Shown: piece after piece, positions 1 through 50,906 of the stretch
How positions within the stretch are numbered: the stretch's first letter is position 1
Layout of the letters: each line of letters begins with the position of its first letter
Source: Oscillospiraceae bacterium
GTDB lineage: Bacteria; Bacillota; Clostridia; Oscillospirales; SIG627
Assembly: GCA_015063605.1 (NCBI GenBank)
Contig: SVTV01000011.1
Location: 1 to 64,000 of the forward strand
Length of the DNA stretch: 64,000 nucleotides
Direction of reading: 5' to 3'
The notes under the pieces: model-generated
Told to the model about the DNA's origin: nothing
What the model saw: only the letters and a program-made list of their open reading frames with translations
Databases searched by the model: none
Position numbers and translations under genes: made by a program

Positions 1-87
1 GCAGAATATGAAAAGGATTGCATCCATCCTCTGGAAGAGGAGTTTGCTTCTTTTTTCTGCCCTACTTGTTTTTCCTTTTATTTGTTC

Positions 88-113
88 AAAACCCGCCTTT
101 TTGAGGCGGGTTT
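88..113. terminator. GC-rich hairpin AAACCCGCC-N7-GGCGGGTTT flanked by T/A runs; likely bidirectional intrinsic terminator
   Basis: Perfect 9-bp inverted repeat with 7-nt loop, T-rich flank; seen directly in sequence. Confidence 0.55.
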
Positions 114-150
114 GTCAGTAGTCTGAGTATCTCACTATCGTGAGATGCTC

Positions 151-412
151 AAAAAGTTTGCACTTGTCCGTCAAAAAGGACGACGGACAGTTTGCAAAAG
201 CAAACACGTGCAAACTTTGCACAAGTGCGTAAACCACGCCAAAAAGTTTGCACTTGTCCGCCAAAAAGGACGGCAGACAGTTTGCAAAAGCAAACACGCG
301 CAAACTTCGCATAAGTGCGCAAGCCACGCCAAAAAGTTTGCACTTGTCCGCCAAAAAGGACGGCAGACAGTTTGCAAAAGCAAACACGTGCAAACTTCGC
401 ATAAGTGCGGGT
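151..412. repeat. Tandem direct repeat, 90-bp unit x about 2.9 copies, immediately upstream of GH95 start codon
   Basis: Units at 151-240, 241-330, 331-about 412 nearly identical (AAAAAGTTTGCACTTGTCCG...GCAAAAGCAAACACGTGCAAAC...); internal short inverted repeats (TTTGC-N4-GCAAA, GTGCAAACTTTGCAC). Confidence 0.9.
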
Positions 413-446
413 TACGGTAAAAAATACGAAAGGAACGGTTAAAAAT

Positions 447-2795
447 ATGTCGGATAAGCTTTGGTACGATAAGTATTATGAGGATTGGATGAAGGCTCTG
501 CCATTGGGAAACGGACGTGTGGGAGCCATGGTATACGGAAGCCCCCACAGGGAGCGGATAGAGATGAATGAGGAATCTCTTTGGAGCGGAAAGCCTCTGG
601 AGGAGACGAATCATGCATCTCCCGAAGCATTGAAGGAGCTTCGCACTCTTCTTTTTGCGGAAAAGTATGAAGAGGCGGCACAGCTTTGCAAGGATACATT
701 TCTTGCTTCGCCCTCGAGAGTCCGCTTTTATGAAAGCTTCGGAGAGCTTTTCGTGGATATGGAGGATAAGAGCGGATATTCCGCATACAGAAAGGAGCTT
801 GATCTGAGAGACGGTATCGTCCGGGTAAGCTATGAAAAAAGCGGGATCGTATATGAAAGCGAGGCTTTGGTCAGCGACAAATACGATATATTCGCATACA
901 GGATAAAAACAGGCGGCGAGCCTTTTTCATGCTGTGTTTCTTATGTGAGGGGACAGGATGCATCCGTTTCGTCATTGGATGAAAACACACTTCTCTTAAA
1001 CGGCAGAGTCGTTTTCAAGAGCCATCCCGAAAGGGGAGATGGCGGAGAGGGTATGAGCTTCGGCGCTCTTATCAAAATAAAGTCCGACGGCGAGGTCGCC
1101 TCCGATAAGCTTTCCGTTTCCGTGAAGGACGGTACATACGTTGAGATATACACATCCTTTGCCACAAATTACGATGCGGAAAATTATTCCATAGACGAGA
1201 ATAAAAAATACAAGGAAAAGCTTTTTTCGGATATTTCCAAAGCCTTGGAAACGGGATTTGACGGAATAAGAGACGATCACATAACGGAGCACGCAAGGGT
1301 ATATGACAGAACGAGCCTTACGATAGAGGGCACGGACAGGAGCGGTATCCCCACCGATGAAAGACTGCGGCTTGCAAGAGAGGGAGAAACGGATAACGAT
1401 CTTTACACCCTTTATTTCAATTTCTGCCGCTATCTTCTTACGGAAAGCTCGGGCAAAAGAGCAGTCCTTCCCGCAAATCTTCAGGGCATCTGGTGCAGCG
1501 GATTTACGCCTCCCTGGGGAAGCGACTACCACACGAATATAAATCTGCAGATGAATTACTGGCCTGCGGACACGGTGAATATGTCCGAGACCGTCAAGCC
1601 CTTTGTTCACTTTATGAAGATGATAAGCCGTGCCGGGGTAAAGACATCAAGGGAGCTTTTCGGAACGGAGGGTTGGGTAGTGAACCACACCACCGATGTT
1701 TTCGGCAGAACGGGAGTTCATGATTCCGTCCAATGCGGATTTTTCCCCATGGCAGGACCCTGGCTGTGTCTTAACCTTTGGGAACATTACGAATTTACAA
1801 GGGATGAAAAGCTTCTCGAAGAAATATATCCCATTATGAAGGGTGCTTGCGAATTTGTTCTGGGATTTCTTACGGAAAGCGATGACGGATACCTTGTGAC
1901 AAGCCCATCCAATTCCCCGGAAAACAAGTTTTTCTATATAGATGAAAGCGGAAATAAAAAGGCGAGTATGTTTACATACGGAGCTACCGTTGATTTTGAG
2001 ATAATATACGCCCTTTTCACCCGCACCGTTTTTGCCTGCGGTAAGCTCGGCACGGATAAGGAGCTTGCGGAAAGGCTGGAAGAAACGCTGAAAAGACTTC
2101 CTCCGCTACGTATAAGCGAAAGATACGGTACGATCTGCGAATGGATACACGATTACGAGGAGACAGAGCCCTCCCACCGCCACATATCCCATTTGTTTGC
2201 ACTTTTCCCTTCGGATCAGATAAATGAAAACAGCGGTGCTCTTTATGAGGCTGCCAAAAAGACTATCGCAAGGCGTCTCGAACACGGAGGCGGTGCCACG
2301 GGATGGTCGAGAGCCTGGATAATCAATTTCTATGCAAGATTGAAGGACGGCAAAAGAGCTCTTGAGAATCTCGATCTGCTTCTTGCACGATCCACGGCGG
2401 ACAACCTTTTCGACATTCATCCTCCCTTCCAGATAGACGGAAATTTCGGAGGACTGTCGGGAATTGCGGAAATGCTTTTGCAGAGCCATGAGGGAAAGCC
2501 CGGAGAGAGGATAGTGTCTCTCCTTCCCGCACTTCCCGAAAAGTGGAAAAACGGTCATGTCAAGGGCTTGCGTACAAGAGGCGGCTATGAAGCAGATATC
2601 CGATGGGAAAACGGAAGTCCCGTTTATCTTGCGGTGAAGGCTGAAGGGGGAGGCGTATTCAGGCTTAAGCTTACGGATAAGATGAAGAGTATTGAGTGCA
2701 GCCGTGAATATAAGATCGACGGCGGCATATTGGAAATACCTCTCGGCGCAGGAGAGGAATGCGGGCTCCGTTTTGAAAAAACAAAAGAAATATGA
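447..2795 (+). CDS. Glycoside hydrolase family 95 alpha-L-fucosidase (alpha-1,2-fucosidase-like)
   Basis: N-terminal GH95 signature KLWYDKYYEDWMKALPLGNGRVGAMVYG...EESLWSG, length about 780 aa; start moved to ATG 447 (MSDKLWY) behind AAAGGAACGG SD. Confidence 0.85.
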   Translation: MSDKLWYDKYYEDWMKALPLGNGRVGAMVYGSPHRERIEMNEESLWSGKPLEETNHASPEALKELRTLLFAEKYEEAAQLCKDTFLASPSRVRFYESFGELFVDMEDKSGYSAYRKELDLRDGIVRVSYEKSGIVYESEALVSDKYDIFAYRIKTGGEPFSCCVSYVRGQDASVSSLDENTLLLNGRVVFKSHPERGDGGEGMSFGALIKIKSDGEVASDKLSVSVKDGTYVEIYTSFATNYDAENYSIDENKKYKEKLFSDISKALETGFDGIRDDHITEHARVYDRTSLTIEGTDRSGIPTDERLRLAREGETDNDLYTLYFNFCRYLLTESSGKRAVLPANLQGIWCSGFTPPWGSDYHTNINLQMNYWPADTVNMSETVKPFVHFMKMISRAGVKTSRELFGTEGWVVNHTTDVFGRTGVHDSVQCGFFPMAGPWLCLNLWEHYEFTRDEKLLEEIYPIMKGACEFVLGFLTESDDGYLVTSPSNSPENKFFYIDESGNKKASMFTYGATVDFEIIYALFTRTVFACGKLGTDKELAERLEETLKRLPPLRISERYGTICEWIHDYEETEPSHRHISHLFALFPSDQINENSGALYEAAKKTIARRLEHGGGATGWSRAWIINFYARLKDGKRALENLDLLLARSTADNLFDIHPPFQIDGNFGGLSGIAEMLLQSHEGKPGERIVSLLPALPEKWKNGHVKGLRTRGGYEADIRWENGSPVYLAVKAEGGGVFRLKLTDKMKSIECSREYKIDGGILEIPLGAGEECGLRFEKTKEI

Positions 2796-2835
2796 ATATT
2801 TTTTCATAAAAAATTAATTTTTATGCATTTTGCTA

Positions 2836-2864
2836 TTGCAAAAAATCGAAAAATATTGTATACT
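2836..2864 (+). promoter_or_regulatory. Sigma70-like promoter TTGCAA-17-TATACT for TAXI-TRAP operon
   Basis: ttgcaaaaaatcgaaaaatattgtatact, about 45 bp upstream of SBP gene. Confidence 0.45.
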
Positions 2865-2917
2865 ATTATCCACGTATTTAAGTATTTTAAAATACACTGA
2901 AAGGAATGGTTATAACC

Positions 2918-3868
2918 ATGAAGAAAATTTTAATTTCTGTATTGCTCATTGCGGCAATGGTACTTTCCCTTGTTTCCTGCGGCGCAGGTATGACAATGGG
3001 TACAGGCGGAACATCCGGTACATATTACGCTTACGGCGGAATACTCGGCAACCAGATCAAGGCTTCTGCGGGAATCACGGTTAACGTAGTTTCCACAGAC
3101 GGATCCAAGGCTAACATCCTCGGAATCGATGCAGGCAATTATCAGCTCGGTACAGTTCAGTCCGACGTTATGGCTTATGCATGGAACGGCACAAACACAT
3201 TCGCTGAAGACGGCGCAGTTAAGTCCTTCAGAGTAATCGGCGGCCTCTATGCTGAAGCTGTTCAGCTCGTTACAATGGATTCCTCCATCAAGTCCGTTAA
3301 AGACCTTAAGGGCAAGAGCGTTTCCATCGGTGCTGCAGGCTCCGGTGTTTACTTCAACGCTATAGATATTCTCGCTGCTGCAGGTCTTAAGGAAACAGAC
3401 ATCAAGGCTCAGTATCAGTCCTTCGCTGACTCTGCCGATGCTCTCAAGGATGGCAAGATCGACGCTGCTTTCATCGTTGCAGGCGCTCCCACACCCGCTA
3501 TCCAGGAACTCTGCCAGACAACAGACGCTCGCCTCGTTCCCATCGACGGCGATATCGCTGAAGCTCTTATGTCTTCCTCCGAGTACTACACAGTATACGA
3601 GGTTCCCGCTGAAACATACAAGGGTCAGACAGAAGCTGTTAAGACAGTTACAGTTAAGGCTACTCTTATAGTAAGCGCTAACTCCTCCGAAGAAGACGTT
3701 TACAACGTAACAAAGGCTATATTCGATAATGTTGATGCTATCGCAGCTGCTCACGGTAAGGGCGCAGAGCTCTCCCTCGAGAACGCTACAAGCGGTATGA
3801 CAGCTCCTTTCCACAAGGGCGCTGCTAAGTATTTCGCAGAAAAAGGCATCACTGTTACAGCCGAATAA
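2918..3868 (+). CDS. TAXI-family TRAP transporter solute-binding lipoprotein
   Basis: Lipoprotein signal MKKILISVLLIAAMVLSLVSCGAG; TAXI motifs GTGGTSGTYYAYGGILGN; alternative start 2906. Confidence 0.8.
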   Translation: MKKILISVLLIAAMVLSLVSCGAGMTMGTGGTSGTYYAYGGILGNQIKASAGITVNVVSTDGSKANILGIDAGNYQLGTVQSDVMAYAWNGTNTFAEDGAVKSFRVIGGLYAEAVQLVTMDSSIKSVKDLKGKSVSIGAAGSGVYFNAIDILAAAGLKETDIKAQYQSFADSADALKDGKIDAAFIVAGAPTPAIQELCQTTDARLVPIDGDIAEALMSSSEYYTVYEVPAETYKGQTEAVKTVTVKATLIVSANSSEEDVYNVTKAIFDNVDAIAAAHGKGAELSLENATSGMTAPFHKGAAKYFAEKGITVTAE

Positions 3869-3907: not shown

Positions 3908-3944
3908 GATTGGCTGTGGCTTGATCCCCGCAGCCAATCTTCTT
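3908..3944 (+). other. Intercistronic stem-loop between SBP and permease genes
   Basis: gattggctgtgg...ccgcagccaatc inverted repeat (one mismatch), no T-run; typical stability/partial-termination element between SBP and membrane subunit. Confidence 0.4.
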
Positions 3945-3978
3945 GCGCAAATGCGCATAAAGTCCGAAAGGAGGATCT

Positions 3979-5937
3979 ATGGCATTTTTTAAGAAAAAGG
4001 ATACGCCCGAGGTGCAGGAACCCATGGACCTCGATGAGGTCATGAAAAAATTCGACCGTGAGTCGAATGTCCGTATATGGGAAGGCGTTCCCAAGATCGT
4101 TGTAACATGCATTTTGGCTGTATTTTCCGTATTGTGCATATACGTAACGCTGTGGGCGACATGGCTCGATGAGCTCCGACTCACAACATTTATGGCATTT
4201 ATCGTTTTTAACGGTTATATGATATTTCCCGCGAAAAAAGGTGTGCAGAAGGTAAACTACATACCCTGGTATGATATCGTTCTTATGGCGGCGGGAACTT
4301 GTTCTTTCTTGTATTTCGCAATCAACGCATCCACAATAGTGGCGCGATTCAATATAAATACTCTTGAGGTTATTATAGGTATAATAGGTGTTGCATGCCT
4401 TGCGGAGCTTTGCCGCAGAAGCGTCGGTTTTCCCATACTTATAGTGGCGGGTGTCCTTCTTGTCTATGCAATGATATGGGGCTCCACTAATCCCAGTATC
4501 GTTGCACGTATAACGGAAATGGTAAGAGTTCTCTTCTATTCAAAGGAAGGTATCCTTTCCACTCCCGTAAATGTATGCTCAAAGTATATCGTAATGTTCA
4601 TAATATTCGGTGCATTCCTTGAACGTACCGGTATTGCCGACTTCTTCATAGAAATAGCAAATGCTCTCGTAGGACGTTTTTCCGGCGGTCCCGCAAAGGT
4701 TGCCGTTGTTGCGTCCGCTCTTGAGGGAATGGTATCCGGCTCCTCCGTTGCAAATACGGTCGGTTCCGGCGCAGTCACCATACCGCTCATGAAGCGTACG
4801 GGCTATAAGCCCGAATTTGCCGCCGCTGCGGAAGCTTCCGCATCCACGGGCGGTCAGATCATGCCTCCCATTATGGGTGCTGCGGCGTTCCTTATGGCGG
4901 AGACCATAGGTATGCCTTATTCATCTATAGTTGTAAAGGCTATACTTCCCGCCGTTCTTTACTTTGCGGGCGTATTTATCACAGTTCACCTTGAAGCCAA
5001 AAAAGAAGGTCTGAAGGGCATGAGCAAGGATCAGCTTCCCAGATTGAAGTCCCTTATCAAGCAGACATATCTCCTTCTTCCTCTTGTTCTTCTTATTTAC
5101 CTTGTCGGTACAAGCACATACTCCATAGCTTACGCTGCCGCTATCGCAATAGTTATAGCGATCGTTGTAAGTATGTTCAAAAAAGAGACACGCATGACTC
5201 CCGCCAGACTTTTAGATGCTCTTGCGGCAGGTGCACGGGGAATGATATCCGTTGCGGTCGCCTGCGGTATAGCAGGTATCATAGCAGGTATCATCGGTGT
5301 TACGGGTCTTGCTTATATGCTCTTTAACGGTATAGTTACACTTGCGGGTAATCAGACGATAATCGCTCTCTTCCTTACAATGCTTTGCTGTATCGTTCTC
5401 GGAATGGGAGTTCCCACAACGGCAAATTACTGCATCATGGCGGCTACATGTGCTCCCATACTTGTTCAGATGGGCGTTCCGCTGGTTGCGGCTCACTTCT
5501 TCGTATTCTACTTCGGTATAGTTGCCGACCTTACTCCTCCCGTTGCTCTTGCGGCATATGCGGGCGCGGCAATCGCTCAGGCAAACCCCATGAAGACGGC
5601 TCTGACATCAACGAAGCTTGCCATAGGTGCGTTTATCGTGCCTTACGTTTTCGCATTGAATCCCGTTATGCTTCTTGAGGGTGATCCCGGATTTATTGAG
5701 GTAGCTTTGATAATTGTTACTTCTCTTGTCGGTATATTCGGCGTTTCTGCGGCTCTTGAGGGTTATGTATTCGGACGTATGAACTGGATGCAGAGAATAT
5801 TGTCCGGTGCGGGCGGTCTTCTCCTTATCATCCCCGGTCTCGTTACCGACCTTGCGGGAATAGCGCTTGTTGCTGTAGTTATAGTATGGCAGATCATTGC
5901 AAGAAAGGCTTCCGAAGGAGCAGAAGCAAAGGCGTAA
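3979..5937 (+). CDS. TRAP transporter fused permease (DctQ-DctM fusion, TAXI-associated type)
   Basis: 652 aa polytopic membrane protein immediately downstream of TAXI SBP; length and architecture typical of TAXI-TRAP permeases. Confidence 0.8.
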   Translation: MAFFKKKDTPEVQEPMDLDEVMKKFDRESNVRIWEGVPKIVVTCILAVFSVLCIYVTLWATWLDELRLTTFMAFIVFNGYMIFPAKKGVQKVNYIPWYDIVLMAAGTCSFLYFAINASTIVARFNINTLEVIIGIIGVACLAELCRRSVGFPILIVAGVLLVYAMIWGSTNPSIVARITEMVRVLFYSKEGILSTPVNVCSKYIVMFIIFGAFLERTGIADFFIEIANALVGRFSGGPAKVAVVASALEGMVSGSSVANTVGSGAVTIPLMKRTGYKPEFAAAAEASASTGGQIMPPIMGAAAFLMAETIGMPYSSIVVKAILPAVLYFAGVFITVHLEAKKEGLKGMSKDQLPRLKSLIKQTYLLLPLVLLIYLVGTSTYSIAYAAAIAIVIAIVVSMFKKETRMTPARLLDALAAGARGMISVAVACGIAGIIAGIIGVTGLAYMLFNGIVTLAGNQTIIALFLTMLCCIVLGMGVPTTANYCIMAATCAPILVQMGVPLVAAHFFVFYFGIVADLTPPVALAAYAGAAIAQANPMKTALTSTKLAIGAFIVPYVFALNPVMLLEGDPGFIEVALIIVTSLVGIFGVSAALEGYVFGRMNWMQRILSGAGGLLLIIPGLVTDLAGIALVAVVIVWQIIARKASEGAEAKA

Positions 5938-40164: not shown

Positions 40165-40848
40165 TTACTCCGCAGGTTGGGATGTGTTACCGGATTTGAA
40201 GGATTCGATAACGCTCTTCTTTGCGTTGATAAGATGCTCCTCCGCCGATTTGCGTGCGGCAAAGCCGTCCTTTGCCTTTATCGCTTCATATATCTTTCTG
40301 TGCTCTTCCACAGATGCCAGAAGACGTGCAGGGGAATGGATGGAAAGCTCTCTTGCACGGGAGGCGTAGGTGTGGAAATCCACCAGAAGATGCTGAAGCA
40401 TACGGCTCTTGCATGCGGTGTATATGACATTGTGGAATTTGGCGTCGTATTGCCATACCTGCAGAAAATCGTTCTTCTTGGCGAAAAATTCCTGAAGCTC
40501 CACGATCTCACCGAGCTGATCCAGCTCTTCCTTCGTTATATGCACTATTGCCCATTCGGCGGCAACGCTTTCCGCAAATATGCGGATGGTGTACATGTCA
40601 TCTATATCGGCTTCGGATATACCTATGACTACAGCTCCCTTGTTGGGTACGGAGCGCACGAGTCCGTCGTGCTCCAATTGGCGTATCGCTTCTCTTACGG
40701 GAGTGCGGCTGACACCCAATTCGGTGGATATCTTTACCTCCGTAAGGCTTTCTCCCGGCTTTAAGTGGCCTGCCAGAATATCATCACGTATTTCGTTGTA
40801 TACCAATGTAAAAAGTGAACTTGTGTTGCTGTTTCCTATATATTTCAT
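40165..40848 (-). CDS. GntR-family transcriptional regulator (FadR/FCD subfamily)
   Basis: N-terminal wHTH ESLTEVKISTELGVSRTPVREAIRQLEHDGLV; helical FCD C-domain. Confidence 0.8.
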   Translation of the reverse strand: MKYIGNSNTSSLFTLVYNEIRDDILAGHLKPGESLTEVKISTELGVSRTPVREAIRQLEHDGLVRSVPNKGAVVIGISEADIDDMYTIRIFAESVAAEWAIVHITKEELDQLGEIVELQEFFAKKNDFLQVWQYDAKFHNVIYTACKSRMLQHLLVDFHTYASRARELSIHSPARLLASVEEHRKIYEAIKAKDGFAARKSAEEHLINAKKSVIESFKSGNTSQPAE

Positions 40849-40992
40849 CTTTAAGACCATTCCTTTTCTGTAAGGCGGGATGACTTTTTATATCATTACT
40901 CCGTGCCTCATATAATTATACACAAAATAAACGGGAAAGTCAATCGAGGTTTGTTATAACGTAAAAAAAATTGCAAATTTTTTTGAAAAACA

Positions 40993-41024
40993 TGTCACAA
41001 AATGCCTTCCTGAATTGTATATAT
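40993..41024 (+). promoter_or_regulatory. Candidate ECF-sigma-type promoter, copy 1: TGTCACAAA-N11-AATTGTATATAT
   Basis: tgtcacaaaatgccttcctgaattgtatatat, about 120 bp upstream of the sigma factor gene; same motif with identical 20-bp spacing recurs at 42440. Confidence 0.5.
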
Positions 41025-41144
41025 ATACAGAAGCGGAAAACTATTTTCGATAAATGCAATATTCACAGTATCTACATTGATTTTCTAATGTTATTGCGTT
41101 ATAATTTAACCGAGACCTTTAATACTTGTCAAACCGAGGGAACG

Positions 41145-41720
41145 ATGTTACTGTTTTTATTGCTTTTGGAAGAATCGGAAAGAAAGCCCGTGGAGTTTCT
41201 TTACAACAAATACTGCAGATATATGTATCAGACAGCATACAACATTTTGGGTAATAATATTGCTGCGGAGGATGCGGTGCATAACGCTTTTGTCGCCATA
41301 ATTAATAATTTGGACGGAATAAAATACGGACTTGAAAAGGAGCTTGAAGATCCGGATTCCGACTATCTTTTGGGATACGTTTGCCGTGCCGCTAAAAATT
41401 GCGCTTTGAATATTAAAGCGAAAAAAGACAAGATATCCCGCCGTGAAACATCGTATCCGGAGGATGATACTCTCCTCGGCGATATTGAAATGTGCGATAA
41501 AATAATAGCCGATGAAAGCGTTATGCGTATAAAAAATTGCATAAAAAAGCTTCCCGAAATATACAGGGACATTTTCGTTATGCACTTTATCGGAGAAATG
41601 TCCTATAAAGAAATAGGAAAATTGCTTTCACTTCCCCAAGCAACAATAAGAAAACGCATCGAGCGCGGCAAAGTAAAGCTTGCGGAAGAATTGAAAAAGG
41701 AAGGGTTTGATATAAAATGA
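41145..41720 (+). CDS. ECF-subfamily RNA polymerase sigma-70 factor
   Basis: Region 2 (AEDAVHNAFVAIINN) and region 4 HTH (MSYKEIGKLLSLPQATIRKRIERGKVKL); start at ATG 41145 behind GAGGGA SD. Confidence 0.8.
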   Translation: MLLFLLLLEESERKPVEFLYNKYCRYMYQTAYNILGNNIAAEDAVHNAFVAIINNLDGIKYGLEKELEDPDSDYLLGYVCRAAKNCALNIKAKKDKISRRETSYPEDDTLLGDIEMCDKIIADESVMRIKNCIKKLPEIYRDIFVMHFIGEMSYKEIGKLLSLPQATIRKRIERGKVKLAEELKKEGFDIK

Positions 41721-42403
41721 ACAAAGCTGATGAAAAAATAGCCTTAGCTTTGGCGCAGGTGGATGCGGAAGAGTTTAAAAATATGGATATGACCGCCGCC
41801 GATAATTGGGTACCGTCGGAAAAGTTTGAAAAGAAGATAGGAAAGCTTCTGAAACATCGGAAAGAACCGTTTATTAAAATTGCGGGTAACGCAAGAAAAC
41901 GCTTTGCGGCTGTAGCATGTGCGTTTCTTGTTTTTTTCGGTGCCGCCATGAGCGTGGAGGCGTCGAGGGAGTTTATAGTGGGATTTGTTGTTGATATATA
42001 TGAAAATATATCTAAGTTTGCATTCGAAAATCCGGAAGGAGCAAATGCTCCCAAAGAAATAGAAATAAGATACTATCCGGAATATATTCCGGACGAATAT
42101 GAATTGAGAGAAACGAAAGAGTCAAGATTTCGCAATGAAATTGTATTTTATAACAAGAAAGATCAAGCTTTGATATATACACAATATTTGATTGATTCAA
42201 TTTCGATCTCGCTTGATACAGAGGATGTTAACATAAATGAAATAAAAATCGGTGATTATTCCGGGTATTACTATATAAGTAAAGAATTAATAAATATTAT
42301 ATGGAAAACTGATGAGTATGTTTTCTATATCAGCGGCGATGAAAATATAACTTTAGATGCGCTTATTGAGATGGCTGAAAGCTTAAAGGCGGAAGAAAAA
42401 TAA
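41717..42403 (+). CDS. Membrane-anchored anti-sigma-factor-like protein (DUF4367-type)
   Basis: ATGA overlap with sigma gene; single TM (FAAVACAFLVFFGAAMSV) followed by extracytoplasmic domain; classic Clostridial ECF partner layout. Confidence 0.55.
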   Translation: MNKADEKIALALAQVDAEEFKNMDMTAADNWVPSEKFEKKIGKLLKHRKEPFIKIAGNARKRFAAVACAFLVFFGAAMSVEASREFIVGFVVDIYENISKFAFENPEGANAPKEIEIRYYPEYIPDEYELRETKESRFRNEIVFYNKKDQALIYTQYLIDSISISLDTEDVNINEIKIGDYSGYYYISKELINIIWKTDEYVFYISGDENITLDALIEMAESLKAEEK

Positions 42404-42439
42404 TTTTTTTCAAAAAAATTGAAATTTTTTCTAAAAATA

Positions 42440-42471
42440 TGTCACAAACTGTTTTTCGTAATTGTATATAT
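42440..42471 (+). promoter_or_regulatory. Candidate ECF-sigma-type promoter, copy 2
   Basis: tgtcacaaactgtttttcgtaattgtatatat, about 90 bp upstream of secreted-protein gene 42562. Confidence 0.5.
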
Positions 42472-42561
42472 GGTTAGAGGGACAAAAAATGCTTTTGAAT
42501 TGTTTTTTCAATGAACAAGTATATATGTTTCCTCTAATACATAGCAAAGGAGGAAAACGTT

Positions 42562-43008
42562 ATGCGCACAAGAAAAAGAATTCTGTTTCTGGCTATGGCA
42601 GTTTTTATGATTGCAAACTGCTTTTTGCCGTTTACGGTAAATGCGGCACTTCCGGAAGATAATCTTGTATCGCCTTTGGCAAACAATGTTCGTAATGTCT
42701 CATCATCATTTGATATAATGAACGGAGTTGCTGAAATCGAAGCATCTTACATAGGTTATCAAGGAACAACAACGGGAGCTACTATTACGGTCAAGTTACA
42801 GAAAAAGTTTTTGTTCTGGTGGAATGACGTTGACAACGGTCAACCCGATGACACTTGGACAGCAAACTTAACGGGATGGAAAAATTCTGTCTCATACTCT
42901 CTCGCGTTGAGCAATACGGGAGATTACCGCGCAGTGTTTACGTACACTATCCGCGGTACGGGTGGAGCGGACGATGAAATATCGGATACTCTTGAGTATA
43001 CTTATTAA
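42562..43008 (+). CDS. Small secreted protein, unknown function
   Basis: Signal peptide MRTRKRILFLAMAVFMIANCFLPFTVNA. Confidence 0.5.
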   Translation: MRTRKRILFLAMAVFMIANCFLPFTVNAALPEDNLVSPLANNVRNVSSSFDIMNGVAEIEASYIGYQGTTTGATITVKLQKKFLFWWNDVDNGQPDDTWTANLTGWKNSVSYSLALSNTGDYRAVFTYTIRGTGGADDEISDTLEYTY

Positions 43009-43110
43009 AAGTCCGAAAAATGAATTTTTTGGATGAAGGCTTGAGCATTGCGCTCAAAAACAGCAGTTTTTGCATTTGCAAAAAAAACAAAAAGAAAGGA
43101 CAAACAAAAC

Positions 43111-43575
43111 ATGAAAAAATCAGTAAGATTTATTGCAATCGCACTTGCGTTTTGCACGGTTTTCAGTATAGTGGCATTTGCTATACAGGTAGATGGGGTA
43201 CACAGTTATGGTGTATTTGTGAACAATGGTACTTCGGTAGATTGCCACGGATATTTGTATTCTAACATTATCCATTTCCCCGAAGACGATGAAATGGTTG
43301 AAGTTTGGGCTTCTACAGAGGTTTCCCAAAGAACGGCTAATATGGGGACAATATCGGTGAGCTGCACTTTCCACACGGTTGGTGGTGCTGTTATTGATAC
43401 ACATAATGCCTCAACAACCCAAAACCGTATAGCGAGTACTCTTAATGATCCTGTAGTAGGTCCGCTTCTTGCATTGGCGGAAGCTGTACACAAAGTGGAA
43501 TATATTAATGACGCTGATGTTTCTTTGATTTGGAGCGGGGAAACTTCAAAGCAACTTAGAGATTACTTAGTATAA
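43111..43575 (+). CDS. Small secreted protein, unknown function
   Basis: Signal peptide MKKSVRFIAIALAFCTVFSIVAFA; start moved to ATG 43111. Confidence 0.5.
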   Translation: MKKSVRFIAIALAFCTVFSIVAFAIQVDGVHSYGVFVNNGTSVDCHGYLYSNIIHFPEDDEMVEVWASTEVSQRTANMGTISVSCTFHTVGGAVIDTHNASTTQNRIASTLNDPVVGPLLALAEAVHKVEYINDADVSLIWSGETSKQLRDYLV

Positions 43576-43684
43576 TGTATTGACCTTATTAAGTAACTAA
43601 AGGTATAATACACTTTGGACTTGCCGACAAGTTAGTCGGCAAGTCCTTGGTTGTAACAATTATAGAAAGGGGAGTGAATTACCC

Positions 43685-44962
43685 ATGAAAAGAACATTTT
43701 TGATTTGTATTTCTATGATGTTTATATTCTCATGCTTTTCTTGCACGAGGCAGGAGCTGCCGTATATTTCGGAAGAAGCACCAAAAACACTAGATACCGA
43801 TGTTGTACAAGTATATTCATACGATCCGACAGATGACGGACTTGAAAACGTAAGATTTCCTGAGGTGTATATTACCAATGCAGGATTGTATTACAGTGAC
43901 GGTGAGTTGTATTTCAGATCAAGCGATATGTATTATAAATATAATAAAGAAACAGGAGATTTTTTGCCTTTTTGTAAGGATCCCGTATGCGATCATAGAA
44001 CGCTTGAGTGTCCATTTTATGGTAATACATTTTCGTGCTTTTACATTCATGACGAAAATATTATTTATTTGCAAGACACTCCCGATTTGGAGCACATTTC
44101 CGGATCCAATACGCTTAACATATATGATGTTGAAAAAGACAAAAGAAGAATACTGCATTACTATGACTCTGACTCAAATATGATGAGCTCGAATATGACC
44201 TTCTATAAGGATGAATTGTTATTTACCGATATAGTAAAAGATGAAAAAACAGAAGAATATATATATTCGCTGTGCGCAGTAAACTTAAAAACGGGTAAAA
44301 AACGTATTTTGTTGAGTGAAGCGTGGATGATAGCAGCACTAATGTCAGATGATGGCGGCGTTTACTATACGGACTTAAAGGAACAAAAAAATATATATGC
44401 CAAAAATAATGATCTAAAAGATACGGAAGAACTTCCGTTTTACAATACAAGATTCTTTTTTGTTGGTGATAAAGTTATCTACGTAGATAATAATGGATAC
44501 TTAACTTCTTCTGATAGGTACGGAAATAACAAAAAGAGTTTGGGGATATCCGATATAGACAGTTTCTTTGTAACGGATAAATATATATATTACAGGCACA
44601 ACGGTACCACAAATATAGGAAAAACAATTGAACAGACGGGAAGAGGAGAAAAAATAGAACAAACTATGGAGTTGAATGTCAATTCCATATACAGATGTAA
44701 TCACGACGGAAGCAATATTGAAGAAGTGATAAAGTTCTATGACGGCGAACCTCTTGAAGCGGGGGAAAGTGTGTACTATTCTCAAAGAATGTTTATACTT
44801 TCCGGTTATTATTATACTAAGTATGATCGTCTTATAATGGGTGAAGACGGATATCTTGTGTCTGACACCGGCGATAAAAAGTTCAATAATTATCTCCGTA
44901 TAAACATTGAAACCGGCGAAAAGTATATTATAAAGGTTCCGAATATTTACGTTAACCATTAA
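43685..44962 (+). CDS. Paralogous Cys-motif lipoprotein family member 1 (possibly beta-propeller, DUF5050-like)
   Basis: Lipobox FSCFSC; conserved CKDPVCDHRTLECPF, YSLCAVNLKTGKKR, YRCNHDGSNIEEVIKFYDGEPLEAG, NYLRINIETGEKYIIKVPNIYVNH. Confidence 0.7.
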   Translation: MKRTFLICISMMFIFSCFSCTRQELPYISEEAPKTLDTDVVQVYSYDPTDDGLENVRFPEVYITNAGLYYSDGELYFRSSDMYYKYNKETGDFLPFCKDPVCDHRTLECPFYGNTFSCFYIHDENIIYLQDTPDLEHISGSNTLNIYDVEKDKRRILHYYDSDSNMMSSNMTFYKDELLFTDIVKDEKTEEYIYSLCAVNLKTGKKRILLSEAWMIAALMSDDGGVYYTDLKEQKNIYAKNNDLKDTEELPFYNTRFFFVGDKVIYVDNNGYLTSSDRYGNNKKSLGISDIDSFFVTDKYIYYRHNGTTNIGKTIEQTGRGEKIEQTMELNVNSIYRCNHDGSNIEEVIKFYDGEPLEAGESVYYSQRMFILSGYYYTKYDRLIMGEDGYLVSDTGDKKFNNYLRINIETGEKYIIKVPNIYVNH

Positions 44963-45224
44963 AAGTAAGGCTTGCCGATTTGCGGCAAGCCTTTGAAAAA
45001 ATCGGCTTTGGATTATCAAGAAAAGTGAAACAAAAGTAGTTTTCGATTTGTTATATACATATAAGTGAATTGAATTATAAAATAATCAAAAAACGGCAAG
45101 GTTTACAAATTGTTCATTGACTGTATTTGCGATATATAGTATAATGATACTATGGTATAATAACACATCCGGTATTTGTGCGTCGGTAAAACCATTCAAT
45201 ACTATCGGAGCGAAAGGAGTTACT

Positions 45225-46487
45225 ATGAAAAGAACAATATTAATAGTTATCAGCGCAATATTTGTCTTATCCTGCTTTTCCTGCACTAGGCAGGAATTAC
45301 CGTATCTTTCAGAAGAGATGACGAAAAATGACGGTTTTTCACAAGTATATTCATACACCCCGACCGATGACGGACTTGAAAACGTAATTTTCAGCGGCGT
45401 GTATATGGCATCGAACGATTTATACTACAATGATGGTAATATGTATTTGTGTTCGGCAGATATGTACTACAAAATTGACCTTGAAACGGGAAGACTTACA
45501 ACATTGTGTAAAGACCCGGTGTGCAATCATAAAACATGGGAGTGTCCTTTGCACGGGCAAACCTCGTATTTTTACGTTTTCGGAAAAGATTTTATTTCCA
45601 GACAGTACACATTGATCGGAGGAGAGCGTTTGTTAACGCTTAATCACTTTGATATCGAAAAATCAGTAAGAAAAGTGCTGCATAACTTTAATATGAATTC
45701 AAGTAAACTGATCGAGAACAGGACACTTTACAATGATGAATTATTATTCGTAGATGTTATAAAGGATGAAAAAACAGAAGAGTACATATATTCACTCTGT
45801 GCCGTAAATATAAGAACCGGAAAAAAACGTGTAATGGTACGTGATGCATGGAGAATAACACCTTTAATGGCTGACGAGGGCGGTGTGTACTACTCCGACT
45901 TGAAGGAACAATATTATTTTTATGCAAGAAACAACGATCTTGACGACAGAGAGATACTTCCTTTCTATGCAGTGGCGTTTTATTTAGTGGGGGATAAGAT
46001 AATTTACGAAGACAAAGATGGCTGCCTGATATATTCTGACAGAGACGGAAAAAACAAGATTAATTTGAATATAAAGGGTGTAGACGATTTCTTTGTAACC
46101 GATAACTACGTATATTACCGATATGAGGGAAAAACAAATATTGGAAAAATGCTAACACGAACAGGTCCGGGAAAAACAGAAGAAGTAACGATAGAATTGA
46201 ATATGAATTCCATATACAGATGCAGTCACGACGGAAGCAATGTTGAAGAAGTGATAAGGTTCCATGACGGCGAACCTCTTGAAGCAGGGGAGACCGTGTA
46301 CTATTCTCAAAATATGTTTATACTTTCCGGTTATTACTATACCGGGCTTTTAAGTTATACAATGGGTGAAGACGGATATCTTACAGGAGACCGAGGCGAT
46401 GACAAATGTCGCAATTATCTCCGTATAAACATTGAAACCGGCGAAAAGTATATTATAAAAGTACCGAATATTTACGTTAACCATTAA
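45225..46487 (+). CDS. Paralogous Cys-motif lipoprotein family member 2
   Basis: MKRTILIVISAIFVLSCFSCTRQELPY; CKDPVCNHKTWECPL; same C-terminal motifs; start at ATG 45225 behind AAAGGAG. Confidence 0.7.
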   Translation: MKRTILIVISAIFVLSCFSCTRQELPYLSEEMTKNDGFSQVYSYTPTDDGLENVIFSGVYMASNDLYYNDGNMYLCSADMYYKIDLETGRLTTLCKDPVCNHKTWECPLHGQTSYFYVFGKDFISRQYTLIGGERLLTLNHFDIEKSVRKVLHNFNMNSSKLIENRTLYNDELLFVDVIKDEKTEEYIYSLCAVNIRTGKKRVMVRDAWRITPLMADEGGVYYSDLKEQYYFYARNNDLDDREILPFYAVAFYLVGDKIIYEDKDGCLIYSDRDGKNKINLNIKGVDDFFVTDNYVYYRYEGKTNIGKMLTRTGPGKTEEVTIELNMNSIYRCSHDGSNVEEVIRFHDGEPLEAGETVYYSQNMFILSGYYYTGLLSYTMGEDGYLTGDRGDDKCRNYLRINIETGEKYIIKVPNIYVNH

Positions 46488-46687
46488 AAGTAAGGCTTGC
46501 CGATTTGCGGCAAGCCTTTGAATGAACATTTAAACAATCAAAAAGAACAGAAAAACGGCAAAGTTTACAAATTGTTCATTGATTTTCTTTGCATAATGTT
46601 GTAAAATGATAATGAGATGTTAAAGCACATCCAAATTTTGCACATCGGCAAAAATATCAGAAGCCATTGAAGCGAAAGGAGACCCCC

Positions 46688-47956
46688 ATGAAAAAAATAT
46701 TTTTAATTCTTGTTAGTGTAATACTTGTGTTTTCTTGCGTTTCATGCAAGAGAGAAGAATTGCCGTATTTAACGGAACCTGTAAAAATAGGTGATAATTT
46801 TTCCGAGGTATATACATACGCACCAAATGATGATTCATTAATGAATGTTACATTTCCGGAGTCATTCATACACAATTTAGGATTAGCGTACTACGAAGAT
46901 GAATTGTATCTTGAGTCTCATGACATGGTATACAAAATCAATCTTGAAACCGGAAAACTTACGACCTTGTGTAAAGATCCTATATGCAATCATAGAACAA
47001 AAGAATGTCCTTTTTTTGATTTGTATTCTTATTTTTACATTTTTGATAATAATGTGATTTATTATAGAGATAACACTGTAGTTGAAAAAAATAATATTAC
47101 CAGCAATCTCACAATCGCTTTCTATGATATTAAGAAAAGTAAGTTTTACACACTTTACGAATTTAGCTCCAAACAAAATACTTTCTCGTACAATATGACG
47201 TTATATAATGATGAACTGATGTTTACTGATATAATCCGTGACGAAAAAACAAACGAAAGGACCCATACTTTGTATGCTTTGAACGTAAAAACACGTAAAA
47301 AGAGAGTATTATACAAAGGAGTTCCGCGATACTCCGCTATAACTGCCGATGAAAACGGAGTTTATTATTCTGACAGAGTGAGCGGAAAACATTTGTATGC
47401 CAAAGATAACGATTTGAAAAAAGCTGTAGAGCTTCCTTATAGTTTAGGGTTCACGATAAACGGAAAGATTATTCACAAGACAGACCACACAACTCTTTCT
47501 TCTACACTTGCTTCATATGATTTGAAAACAAATGAATCCAAAGACCTTGGATTAGGTGAAGTAGAGACGTACTTTGTGACAGACAAATACATATATTTCA
47601 GACCGACAGGGGAAATTGATATAGGAAAATTGAAAACCCAGAGCGGGCCGGATCGTGTTTACATAGATCCTTTGATAGATAACTTTAATTCCATTTACAG
47701 ATGTAATCATGATGGAAGTAATGTTGAAGAAGTGATAAAGTTCTATGACGGGGATGTTCAGACGGGAGAGAGTGTGTACTATATTTCGGGAATATTCGTT
47801 TTGGACGGATACTTATATTCGCCTTACTTTAAGTACACCAAACAGGAGGACGGATATTTCACTAATAAGGATGAAGACCCGGATAATGACAAGTACCTCA
47901 GAATAAATATCGAAACAGGAGAAAGATATATAATAAAAACGCCGAGAATGTTTTAA
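46688..47956 (+). CDS. Paralogous Cys-motif lipoprotein family member 3 (most diverged)
   Basis: MKKIFLILVSVILVFSCVSCKREELPY; CKDPICNHRTKECPF; YRCNHDGSNVEEVIKFYDG; ends ...LRINIETGERYIIKTPRMF. Confidence 0.7.
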   Translation: MKKIFLILVSVILVFSCVSCKREELPYLTEPVKIGDNFSEVYTYAPNDDSLMNVTFPESFIHNLGLAYYEDELYLESHDMVYKINLETGKLTTLCKDPICNHRTKECPFFDLYSYFYIFDNNVIYYRDNTVVEKNNITSNLTIAFYDIKKSKFYTLYEFSSKQNTFSYNMTLYNDELMFTDIIRDEKTNERTHTLYALNVKTRKKRVLYKGVPRYSAITADENGVYYSDRVSGKHLYAKDNDLKKAVELPYSLGFTINGKIIHKTDHTTLSSTLASYDLKTNESKDLGLGEVETYFVTDKYIYFRPTGEIDIGKLKTQSGPDRVYIDPLIDNFNSIYRCNHDGSNVEEVIKFYDGDVQTGESVYYISGIFVLDGYLYSPYFKYTKQEDGYFTNKDEDPDNDKYLRINIETGERYIIKTPRMF

Positions 47957-48069
47957 TATGCGATTTTGAAAAAATCGGCTTTGGATTTTCAAGAAAAGTG
48001 AAACATAACACATCCGGTATTTGTGCGTCGGTAAAACTATTCAATACTATCGGAGCGAAAGGAGTTACT

Positions 48070-49341
48070 ATGAAAAGAGCATTATTAATACTCATCAGCG
48101 CAATATTTGTCTTATCCTGCTTTTCTTGCACAAGGCAAGAGCTGCCGTATCTTTCGGAAGAAGCACCAAAAACACTAAATACCGATGTTGTACAAGTATA
48201 TTCATACGATCCGACAGATGACGGACTTGAAAACGTAAGATTTCCTGAGGTGTATATTACCAATGCAGGATTGTATTACAGTGACGGTGAGTTGTATTTC
48301 AAATCAAGCGATATGTATTATAAATATAATATAGAAAGGGGAAATATGTCACCTTTTTGTAAGGATCCTATATGCAATCACAAAACATCGGAGTGTCCTT
48401 TTTACGGTTATATATTTGACGGTTTTTACATTTACGAAGGTAACATTATTTATACACAAAGAGTTCCGATTGGTGAAGATCGTTCCGAAACTCTAAACAT
48501 ATATGATGTAGAGAAAGACGAAAGAAGAATATTGCATCATTTTGATATGAAATCAAGCAGAAGAACTACCAATATGACTTTTTATAACGGAGAATTGTTA
48601 TTTACCGATATAGTAAAAGATGAAAAAACGGAAGAATATATATATTCGCTGTGCGCAGTAAACTTAAAAACGGGTAAAAAACGTATTTTATTAAGTGAGG
48701 GATGGCAGATGTCTGCGCTTATGTCAGATGAAAACGGTGTGTATTACGGAGATGTAAAAAATAAGAAGCTGATATATGCGAGAAATAATGATTTTAATGA
48801 CACAGAAGAGCTTCCGTTTTACAATACACAATTTTATTTTGTCGGGGATAAAGTTATCTACGTAGATAATAATGGATACTTAACTTCTTCTGATAGGTAC
48901 GGAAATAACAAAAAGAATTTGGGGATATCCGATATAGACAGTTTCTTTGTAACGGATAAATATATATATTACAGGCACAACGGTACCACAAATATAGGAA
49001 AAACAATTGAACAGACGGGACGAGGAGAAAAAATAGAACAAACTATGGAGTTGAATGTCAATTCCATATACAGATGCAGCCACGACGGAAGCAATATTGA
49101 AGAAGTGATAAAGTTCTATGACGGTGAACCTCTTGAAGCGGGGGAAAGTGTGTACTATTCTCAAAGTATGTTTATACTTTCCGGATATTATTATACTAAG
49201 TATGATCGTCTTATAATGGGCGAAGACGGATATCTTGTGTCTGACACCGGCGATAAAAAGTTCAATAATTATCTCCGTATAAACATTGAAACCGGCGAAA
49301 AGTATATTATAAAAGTGCCGAATATATACGTAAATCATTGA
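48070..49341 (+). CDS. Paralogous Cys-motif lipoprotein family member 4 (near-identical to member 1 at both ends)
   Basis: MKRALLILISAIFVLSCFSCTRQELPY; about 500 bp at the 3-prime end and about 270 bp at the 5-prime end are about 97 percent identical to member 1 at DNA level. Confidence 0.7.
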   Translation: MKRALLILISAIFVLSCFSCTRQELPYLSEEAPKTLNTDVVQVYSYDPTDDGLENVRFPEVYITNAGLYYSDGELYFKSSDMYYKYNIERGNMSPFCKDPICNHKTSECPFYGYIFDGFYIYEGNIIYTQRVPIGEDRSETLNIYDVEKDERRILHHFDMKSSRRTTNMTFYNGELLFTDIVKDEKTEEYIYSLCAVNLKTGKKRILLSEGWQMSALMSDENGVYYGDVKNKKLIYARNNDFNDTEELPFYNTQFYFVGDKVIYVDNNGYLTSSDRYGNNKKNLGISDIDSFFVTDKYIYYRHNGTTNIGKTIEQTGRGEKIEQTMELNVNSIYRCSHDGSNIEEVIKFYDGEPLEAGESVYYSQSMFILSGYYYTKYDRLIMGEDGYLVSDTGDKKFNNYLRINIETGEKYIIKVPNIYVNH

Positions 49342-49466
49342 TTTTGAATAATGACCGTTGTGACACTATAAAACAAACCGGCAGCACTACCGTTTTTGGT
49401 ATTGCTGCCGATCTGCTTGTTTTCAGGAGTGATTATTTATATTGAGAAATTACCGTGATAAGATCA

Positions 49467-50906
49467 TCAGCCGTTGAGACCGAGAATGTTTTCCGTGTCG
49501 CTTGCCTTTATCATGGCGATAAGCTCATTTGTGCTCATTACCGTCTGGCGGTCGTTTTTGTATTCAGCATCGACGAGAGCCTTGACCTTCAGAACGAGAT
49601 CGGATTTCTTGTCAAGCTCCTTTTCCTCGGGAAGGTTGAAGTGAGCGTTTATCCAATAGGCGATACCGGCAGTACCGGAATTTCCGGAAATGGCGACCTC
49701 GGGACGGCGGTTGAGTATCTTTTTTGTGTCGAAGATATTGTATATCTCCTCGTCCTTGAGAAGTCCGTCCGCATGGATGCCCGCCTTTGTAAGGTTGAAG
49801 TTACTGCCTACAAAGGGAGTCATGGGAGGAATGTCGTAGCCTATTTCGTTTCTGTAATAATCCGCGATCTCCGTAATAACGGAGGTATCCATTCCGTCTG
49901 TGGTTCCGCGGATGGATGCATATTCGAATACCATTGCCTCAAGAGGCACGTTGCCCGTTCTTTCGCCTATTCCGAGAAGGGAGCAGTTTACGGCGCCCGC
50001 ACCGTAAAGCCATGCGTATGTGGCGTTTGTAACGCCCTTGTAGAAATCGTTGTGACCGTGCCACTCTATCATTTCGGAGGGAACGGAGGAATAATGCTTC
50101 AAGCCGTAGATTATGCCGGGAACGCTTCGGGGAAGGGAAGCACCGGGATAGGGTACGCCGTAGCCCATGGTATCGCAGGCACGGATCTTTATGGGAATAC
50201 CCGATTCACGTGAAAGATCCATGAGGGCGTTTGCAAAGGGAACAACGAAGCCGTAGTAATCGGCACGTGTTATATCTTCAAAGTGGCATCTGGGACGCAG
50301 TCCCGCTTCCAATGCATCGTGAACAACGAAGAGATAATGAGTCAGCGCCTGCTGACGTGTCATTCCCAGCTTTTTGAATATATGATAGTCGGAGCAGCTT
50401 ACGAGAATACCCGTTTCCTTTATTCCGATGTCTCTTACCAATTTAAAATCGTTTTTGTTTGCTCTTATCCATGTGGTTATCTCGGGAAATTCGTAACCCA
50501 ATTCCATGCACTTTTCGAGAGCCGCCCTGTCCTTTTCGCTGTAAACGAAAAATTCCGTCTGTCTTATTATACCGTTAGGACCACTGAGGCGGTGGAGCAT
50601 CTTGTATATATCCACTATTTGCTCGGGAGAATAGGGCTTCAATGACTGCTGACCGTCACGGAACGTGGTATCCGTAATAAATATGTTGTCGGGAGTTTCC
50701 ATCGGAACATGTCTGAAATTGAAGGGAACCTTCGGAACCTCGCTGTAAGGATATACATCTCTGTACAATTCCGGTATCTGTACATCCTGTAATCTGTATT
50801 TATAAGTATCCTGTTCAAGTACGTTCGACTTCTTTGATAATTCTATCATGGGGCATGTCCTTTCTTTAAAAAAATGATACATGCGTTCATGTATCATTGT
50901 ATACAA
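49467..50906 (-). CDS. DRE-TIM metallolyase family synthase (2-isopropylmalate / homocitrate / Re-citrate synthase-like)
   Basis: FITDTTFRDGQQS (cf. LeuA DTTLRDGEQ) and HGHND metal-binding motif (EWHGHNDF). Confidence 0.6.
   Translation of the reverse strand: MYTMIHERMYHFFKERTCPMIELSKKSNVLEQDTYKYRLQDVQIPELYRDVYPYSEVPKVPFNFRHVPMETPDNIFITDTTFRDGQQSLKPYSPEQIVDIYKMLHRLSGPNGIIRQTEFFVYSEKDRAALEKCMELGYEFPEITTWIRANKNDFKLVRDIGIKETGILVSCSDYHIFKKLGMTRQQALTHYLFVVHDALEAGLRPRCHFEDITRADYYGFVVPFANALMDLSRESGIPIKIRACDTMGYGVPYPGASLPRSVPGIIYGLKHYSSVPSEMIEWHGHNDFYKGVTNATYAWLYGAGAVNCSLLGIGERTGNVPLEAMVFEYASIRGTTDGMDTSVITEIADYYRNEIGYDIPPMTPFVGSNFNLTKAGIHADGLLKDEEIYNIFDTKKILNRRPEVAISGNSGTAGIAYWINAHFNLPEEKELDKKSDLVLKVKALVDAEYKNDRQTVMSTNELIAMIKASDTENILGLNG

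Follow-up and report, generated by a model that had tools for sequence, protein, structure and literature searches.

Our analysis of a 64,000-nucleotide (nt) stretch of Oscillospiraceae bacterium DNA (contig SVTV01000011.1, positions 1 to 64,000, hereafter the window) revealed a 32-base motif that occurs twice around a gene for an extracytoplasmic function (ECF) sigma factor and its anti-sigma gene. We estimate a probability of about 0.8 that both copies are cognate promoters of this sigma factor (41145-41720), of which the first (P1) would be autoregulatory and the second (P2) would drive one or more genes for small secreted proteins, and that the lipoprotein array farther downstream stands outside this control. 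The motif, its geometry, its recurrence in homologous loci, its co-variation within loci, its conservation and the identity of the target gene were all observed at the sequence level. The features concerned are as follows.

40993-41024, + strand: P1, predicted sigma-dependent autoregulatory promoter (exact motif, ECF41-like geometry, upstream copy also in 12 other loci).
42440-42471, + strand: P2, predicted sigma-dependent promoter for the secreted-protein gene or genes (exact motif, 32/32 identical in the related contigs L095 and L097).
40965-40992, + strand: A/T-rich block 5' of copy 1, with phased A- and T-tracts, UP-element-like.
42412-42439, + strand: A/T-rich block 5' of copy 2, 22/28 identical to the block of copy 1.
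41145-41720, + strand: ECF-type sigma gene, 191 amino acids (aa) (Sigma70_r4_2, E 2e-15; TIGR02937).
41717-42403, + strand: anti-sigma gene, 228 aa (DUF4367, E 3e-17), whose start overlaps the sigma stop codon.
42562-43008, + strand: target gene 1, which encodes a secreted protein of 148 aa (signal peptide, 8-strand beta-sandwich).

The motif TGTCACAAA-N11-AATTGTATATAT was matched exactly twice, both times on the + strand, and no further match was found in the 64-kb window when up to 3 mismatches were allowed. None of 100 dinucleotide shuffles contained any match. With two exact copies and none expected by chance, the motif is highly non-random. The original prediction, that one motif occurs twice with its halves equally spaced, once about 120 bp upstream of the sigma/anti-sigma pair and once right after the anti-sigma gene ahead of the first small secreted protein, was borne out at both sites. 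Copy 1 ends 120 nt short of the sigma start codon (ATG at 41145). For copy 2, the spacing is 37 nt from the anti-sigma stop (42403) to its start and 90 nt from its end to the ATG at 42562.

According to the repeat finder, the two copies resemble each other over 60 nt (40965-41024 vs 42412-42471; 80% identity), which would suit a neutral, functionless leftover of a local duplication. However, beyond the A/T-rich blocks the identity falls into two parts: it is complete in the -35 block (9/9) and in the -10 block (12/12), only 5/11 in the spacer between them, and 8/16 in the 16 nt that follow. This bipartite pattern indicates the footprint of a two-element promoter and not a plain duplication with even decay. 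The same bipartite motif also occurs in distant loci, as described below, and copy 2 is perfect in relatives that carry a deletion just downstream of it, so that a functionless duplication has a probability close to nil in our estimate.

These relatives are found on three short contigs (L095-L097) that encode homologues 89% identical to the 148-aa protein and whose DNA is 83-86% identical overall. The core of copy 2 is identical at 32/32 positions in L097 and L095, and the A/T block before it (42409-42439) is identical at 30/31 and 29/31 positions, respectively, that is 94-97% against 59-89% in the flanks. For comparison, identity to the window in L097 and L095, respectively, is 84% and 65% in the 3' coding sequence of the anti-sigma gene and 89% and 88% in the coding sequence of the target; it is 59% and 65% in the remainder of the 5' untranslated region, which has a deletion of 18-21 nt just past copy 2.

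The gene identities, an ECF sigma factor and a DUF4367 protein, were corroborated by the domain searches. Besides the Sigma70_r4_2 match, the sigma protein scored 73.7 bits against TIGR02937 (sigma70-ECF; cut-off 42.9) and 22 bits against Sigma70_r2, just under the cut-off of 24, while neither a region 3 nor a region 1 match was found. Its size and domain make-up fit the ECF family (group 4), for which only sigma-2 and sigma-4 domains and about 170-200 aa are expected. The protein ends about 10 residues past region 4.2, with no additional Pfam domain and no SnoaL-like C-terminal extension. The start at 41145 was fixed by alignment to 26 homologues, which begin with MLL or MLI. The reading frame itself is open for 58 codons 5' of this true start (40971-41144), and the NCBI and JGI gene calls give an open reading frame of 245 and 242 aa, respectively, that engulfs promoter copy 1. 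An identical protein was found in a Ruminococcaceae metagenome-assembled genome, after which the best match in a collection of 5.8 billion proteins was 37% identical; the best match among GTDB species representatives was 36% identical.

The DUF4367 protein has a short N-terminal cytoplasmic part, a hydrophobic helix at about residues 58-80 and a C-terminal DUF4367 domain. None of the known anti-sigma domain models matched its N-terminus. A DUF4367-type gene lies directly 3' of the sigma gene in 50 of 87 related loci (local hidden Markov model), and this recurrent pairing suggests that the protein acts as an anti-sigma factor. In the literature, DUF4367 was mentioned in one paper, which treats it just as an additional domain of B. 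subtilis SsdC. A structural model of the protein built on 2 sequences reached a predicted local distance difference test score (pLDDT) of 53 and gave weak Foldseek matches (TM1622, E 2e-4; RseB, E 0.04); these matches were not used.

As promoters, both copies read TGTCACA-N16-TGTA, which is the geometry of a mapped ECF41 promoter. In P1, the -35 element TGTCACAAA occupies 40993-41001, and TGTATA at 41016-41021 forms the -10 element; in P2, the corresponding elements lie at 42440-42448 and 42463-42468. When G41017 and G42464 are set as -12, in line with a characterised clostridial-type ECF promoter numbered -13C/-12G/-11T, transcription is predicted to start at about 41029-41030 from P1 and at about 42476-42477 from P2. 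This numbering was taken from the T. tengcongensis RpoE1 paper, where TGTCACA occurs in a primer only. The A/T-rich blocks may serve as UP elements; in homologous loci, too, the motif is preceded by similar A/T tracts. One more promoter-like site was identified between P1 and the sigma gene.

41077-41105, + strand: sigma-A-like promoter TTGATT-17-TATAAT, matching the consensus at 10/12 positions; candidate basal promoter of the sigma operon.

The promoter reading was also supported by the homologous loci, for which we compared the loci of six sigma homologues and 80 further loci from species-representative genomes, collected by a profile search. The motif recurs beside sigma genes whose products are 25-37% identical to the window sigma, most of them accompanied by a DUF4367-type anti-sigma gene. 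A pattern fixed beforehand, TGTC(C)ACA-N15-17-[CTG]GT, gave 27 matches in the 80 independent loci. Of these, 17 were on the same strand as the sigma gene and confined to three narrow classes of position, which together cover about 3% of the sequence (binomial P ~1e-19). A weight matrix was then built from the strict matches, with positions anchored on the AEDAV codons of sigma region 2. It gave 51 matches in 849 kb on both strands, nearly all of them in three places: upstream of the sigma gene (-134 to -350; in 12 other loci as well as in the window), inside the sigma gene at exactly +69 (16 loci), and just past the anti-sigma gene (+1085 to +1232). Among the related loci, 27 could be classified, and 15 of them have this last copy. 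The consensus across the loci is TGTCACAAA-N14-YGTTAT. Thus a motif which, it had been cautioned, might not recur in orthologous loci is present at the same two places around distant sigma/anti-sigma pairs. Autoregulation, likewise foreseen, is supported in silico by the ECF -35/-10 geometry upstream of the sigma gene and by the motif standing upstream of it in the 12 other loci, as is the predicted control of the secreted protein.

Our analysis also showed that the -35 sequence differs by lineage and is common to the copies within one locus. It is TGTCACAAA in L005, L040, L058 and the window, TGTCAGGA in L018 and L025, TGTCCCAAA in all three copies of L065, TGTCCACAAA in L011, and TGTCCGAAA and TGTCCGGAA in L034; TGTCCGRAA is one such variant. 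The downstream copy matched the other copy with at most 1/10 mismatch at the correct spacing in 8 of 23 loci, compared with 0.25% of cross-locus pairs. Such co-variation is expected if the sigma factor of each locus reads both of its copies, and it is unlike the behaviour of a housekeeping promoter or of a GntR operator.

Both of these alternatives had some footing in the window. The gene next to P1, on the other side, encodes a divergent GntR/FCD regulator (40165-40860, - strand). Operators of the GntR/FCD family are often of the T-GT-N-AC-A type, the arms of TGT-C-ACA are inverted, and copy 1 lies in the intergenic region between this gene and the sigma gene, about 50 nt from the sigma-A-like promoter of the regulator (40943-40915), so that TGTCACA could be the operator of this protein. 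But the second copy lies 1.4 kb away behind the anti-sigma gene, a YGT element always accompanies the motif at a fixed distance, and at the other loci with the motif the neighbours are unrelated and none is a GntR gene, the motif tracking the sigma genes instead. An operator is therefore highly improbable.

A few points weigh against the two copies being cognate ECF promoters. Both can also be read as weak sigma-A-like sites (GTCACA-18-TATATA, 8/12). In their -10 element, GT is preceded by T in place of the commoner C; precedents for this T are ECF41 PydfG (TGTT), L005 and L071. Copy 1 has no footprint of its own, as it could be compared only in strain contigs (L098-L100) that are 99.97-100% identical, and the collection of 5.8 billion proteins contained no closer sigma orthologues that would provide one. 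No third site was found in the window, the part of the source genome that was scanned, and so far the "regulon" comprises two promoters. Finally, the organism is uncultured, and the start sites and the sigma dependence are predictions.

The first of these points could mean that the copies are duplicated sigma-A promoters with UP elements, which the ECF sigma factor would not read at all. Their A/T-rich upstream tracts, a TATATA-like -10 and a -35 that agrees with TTGACA at 4/6 positions fit this reading. Yet, at only 8/12, neither copy was reported by the sigma-70 consensus scan (TTGACA-17+/-1-TATAAT, >=9/12), and the homologous loci keep the -10 core YGTTAT while their -35 shifts with the sigma lineage at a constant position, which is not how a housekeeping promoter behaves. 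We regard duplicated sigma-A promoters as very unlikely, and this explanation, like the GntR operator, was rejected on comparative grounds.

The metagenome was scanned with the pattern TGTCACAAANVN11TTGTATATAT, requiring the 10-nt -10 block, excluding T at motif position 11 and leaving out the two known copies. Only one of the 13 matches (L114, 678-709) stands before a further ECF sigma gene; the others resemble chance matches. In L114, this sigma gene (758-1327) is preceded by TGTCACAAATATAAAGTTCCAATTGTATATAT, with the -10 block as in the window.

Several other loci depart from the arrangement of the window. The same TGTCACAAA-N14-CGTTAT stands upstream of the sigma gene in L055, L057, L075 (Bacillus sp.), L046, L071 and L072, where the anti-sigma protein is a different one of 380-475 aa, with a weak DUF4179 match in one. 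This indicates that the motif is used more widely than the DUF4367 pairing. L002 carries a different duplicated motif, TGTAAGAT-N17-GTTTCTATTAT, at 3934-3969 and 5192-5227, that is upstream of the sigma gene and after the anti-sigma gene, the latter copy ahead of a vWA/YfbK_C lipoprotein-like gene. Judged from these positions, L002 retains the twin-promoter layout with an apparently changed specificity. In L005, genes for MobL, Toprim and TraG/type IV secretion system coupling proteins (1-3715) directly precede the sigma/DUF4367/secreted-protein module, which places the module on a conjugative element, and a third, near-identical target promoter lies at 7833 ahead of a secreted C39-like protein. 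Three copies of the locus's own variant were found in L026 (2173, 3610, 4204), L053 (2827, 3740, 4848) and L065 (5193, 6209, 6693), with very similar spacers; in each locus the copies stand before genes for secreted proteins that follow one another. Local copying may therefore be how the promoter spreads.

The 148-aa protein encoded behind P2 belongs to no Pfam or NCBIfam family. In L007, L062, L009, L058, L026 and L005, the gene that comes first after the post-anti-sigma promoter encodes a homologue of it (phmmer, E 6e-11 to 2e-7). A member of its family was found in 20 of 50 sigma/DUF4367 loci, and in the majority of these 20 it immediately follows the anti-sigma gene. Its closest homologues outside the strain (45% identity) are encoded divergently beside sigma/DUF4367 pairs with an ECF-like promoter variant. 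A profile search put the size of the family at 949 clusters (50% identity), almost all of them proteins of 135-150 aa with a single domain. AlphaFold modelled the protein as a signal helix followed by an eight-strand beta-sandwich (pLDDT 84), for which Foldseek found only generic immunoglobulin (Ig)-like or GH2-type sandwich matches, with a template-modelling score of about 0.4.

The features downstream of this gene are as follows.

43111-43575, + strand: gene 2, probably co-transcribed, encoding a 154-aa secreted protein, 102 nt downstream of gene 1.
43580-43609, + strand: sigma-A-like promoter TTGACC-18-TATAAT of lipoprotein gene 1 (11/12), just before the next hairpin.
43617-43646, + strand: hairpin with a 12-bp stem and 8 G-C pairs, a terminator-like site.
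43685-49341, + strand: four paralogous DUF5050 lipoprotein genes with modular intergenic regions.
44967-44993 and 46492-46518: identical hairpin AAGGCTTGCCGATTTGCGGCAAGCCTT after lipoprotein genes 1 and 2.
45117-45145, + strand: sigma-A-like promoter of lipoprotein gene 2 (11/12).
46579-46607, + strand: weaker sigma-A-like site of lipoprotein gene 3 (9/12).

The 154-aa protein has a signal peptide, belongs to no family and is unrelated to the product of gene 1. Neither a motif nor a strong terminator was found between the two genes, and gene 2 always adjoins gene 1 in the strain variants; co-transcription of the two is therefore likely. The P2 transcript probably ends at the hairpin at 43617-43646.

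The original prediction had the sigma factor driving the downstream secreted proteins and perhaps the lipoprotein array. Our analysis upheld the first part in silico, with the secreted protein behind P2 as the conserved first target, and argued against the second. On the + strand between 42990 and 49500, no TGTCACA with up to 1 mismatch was found together with a GT at the correct spacing. The array has its own sigma-A-like promoters and is separated from the P2 genes by the hairpin, and hence it most likely lies outside the sigma regulon. Moreover, no DUF5050 gene was found among the called neighbours of those homologous loci for which Pfam gene tables were available; the small secreted protein serves as the target there, or else a vWA, C39-like or other secreted protein. 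The four DUF5050 genes are contiguous with the P2 genes on the same strand, and the T-tail of the hairpin is weak (TTGGTTG), so that some read-through from P2 is possible; the regulon might reach the array in this way or through unrecognised sites. Against the promoters of lipoprotein genes 1 to 3 and the hairpins after genes 1 and 2, we consider such an extended regulon improbable. The role in envelope stress proposed for the module would follow from the family to which the sigma factor belongs.

Also in this region, a conserved leader, CACATCCGGTATTTGTGCGTCGGTAAAAC, was found upstream of lipoprotein genes 2 and 4. An Rfam search of 40700-49600 returned nothing but a sub-threshold GlmZ_SraJ match on the - strand at 44962-45106, over the hairpin of gene 1 (25.9 bits against a gathering threshold of 60, E 0.004), which was judged to be due to chance.

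In 16-19 sister loci, the cognate motif was found inside the sigma coding sequence, starting exactly 69 nt past the AEDAV codons. Positions of these embedded sites are as follows.

L005: 4193-4225.
L007, L009 and L011: 4196-4228.
L018 and L036: 5187.
L025: 5196.
L040, L058 and L065: 5193.

Cultured organisms that carry an embedded motif include Tissierella praeacuta (L058), Pseudoflavonifractor sp. 524-17 (L028) and Anaerotruncus sp. G3 (L038). The codons that carry the embedded motif read Cys-x-x-Thr-Lys/Arg-x-Phe/Tyr-x-Val-Ile-Ile. The Val codon is GTT in 15 of 15 loci with the embedded motif, compared with 3 of 13 without the TGTC start (Fisher P = 2e-5). Co-variation was also seen between the embedded copy and the target promoter within a locus, and embedded and upstream copies were never found together in one locus. 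At the +69 position, the window sigma shows an 8-residue insertion in the alignment and no embedded motif. By analogy with rseA P3 of E. coli, the embedded motif is probably an internal promoter for the anti-sigma gene.

Taken together, we tentatively suggest that the sigma/DUF4367/secreted-protein modules, a large family, come in two alternative wirings, a view to which we give clearly less than even odds. In the upstream wiring, that of the window, positive feedback would be combined with resupply of the anti-sigma factor. In the embedded wiring, a transcript of the 3' part of the sigma gene and the anti-sigma gene only would give pure negative feedback, and GTT would be imposed at the Val codon by the promoter. 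As the sole conserved output, the Ig-like secreted protein (about 145 aa) might itself be a ligand of DUF4367, or a shield against whatever DUF4367 senses.

For the window itself, we propose a mechanism whose start sites, sigma dependence in vivo, anti-sigma release and inducing signal are drawn from general knowledge of ECF sigma factors. In the resting state, the membrane-bound anti-sigma factor, with its extracytoplasmic DUF4367 domain, would sequester the sigma factor, while the sigma-A-like promoter at 41077-41105 probably supplies basal expression of the operon. An envelope or extracellular cue acting on DUF4367 would inactivate the anti-sigma factor and free the sigma factor. The holoenzyme would then fire P1 (start at about 41029), giving more sigma and anti-sigma factor and thus positive feedback with a built-in reset. 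It would also fire P2 (start at about 42476), giving the 148-aa and probably the 154-aa protein, from a transcript ending at the hairpin.

In B. subtilis, sigW-rsiW, sigX-rsiX and sigM-yhdLK each comprise a sigma factor and a membrane anti-sigma factor whose joint transcription starts at a promoter that the sigma factor itself recognises. Such classical autoregulated ECF operons of Bacillota often have an extra sigma-A promoter, with members of the regulon located close by. The window differs from sigW and sigX in the -35, which is of the TGAAAC type there, and in the sensor domain of the anti-sigma factor, and its apparent regulon is tiny. SigV-RsiV, also of Bacillota, has a single-pass anti-sigma factor with an extracytoplasmic ligand-binding domain, the ligand of RsiV being lysozyme, and the sigma factor induces a few envelope-protective products. 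This system may be a functional analogue of the window pair, although the domains of RsiV are different. A general statement on autoregulated ECF operons is given by Casas-Pastor et al. 2021 (PMC7826278). The wiring of the window, an autoregulated ECF promoter plus a target promoter, is thus textbook and of a kind already well known. What our analysis adds is a minimal regulon, together with a promoter open to testing, for a sigma/anti-sigma family that is uncharacterised, occurs commonly in Clostridia of the gut and rumen (among them Oscillospiraceae, Acutalibacteraceae and Lachnospiraceae) and is linked to an unannotated secreted-protein family of about 950 clusters.

The promoter embedded in the coding sequence of the sister loci is more unusual than this wiring. 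Its precedent is in the E. coli rpoE-rseABC operon, where, according to the account in PMC8595263 (citing Rhodius et al. 2006), rseA P3, which depends on sigma-E, lies inside rpoE and transcribes the anti-sigma genes only. In that account the internal P3 coexists with an upstream autoregulated promoter, whereas in the loci compared here upstream and internal copies never occur together; the window has the upstream form only.

The closest match to the promoters themselves is found in group ECF41, whose promoters have TGTCACA, a spacer of 16 +/- 1 and a -10 of CGTC or TGTT (Wecke et al. 2012, PMC3426412). In the same study, B. licheniformis PydfG, TGTCACAAACTCCGTTTCTCTCTTGTT, begins with TGTCACAAA and has TGTT as its -10. 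The -35 and the spacing are thus identical to those of the window, which has TGTA in place of TGTT, and an ECF41 sigma factor likewise controls essentially one neighbouring gene or operon. However, ECF41 sigma factors carry a SnoaL-like C-terminal regulatory extension of about 100 aa, have no anti-sigma factor, and target a carboxymuconolactone decarboxylase, oxidoreductase or epimerase (COE) gene. The window sigma is a 191-aa protein without the extension, is paired with a membrane DUF4367 anti-sigma factor, and has a small secreted protein as its target. With respect to ECF41 membership, therefore, the promoter signature was found, and the C-terminal extension, the lack of an anti-sigma factor and the COE target were not. 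TGTCACA was termed "specific for group ECF41" by Wecke et al. 2012 (PMC3426412). Our results indicate that this -35 is also used by a group with a classical membrane anti-sigma factor, which matters for promoter-based regulon prediction and for the use of ECF sigma factors as orthogonal parts.

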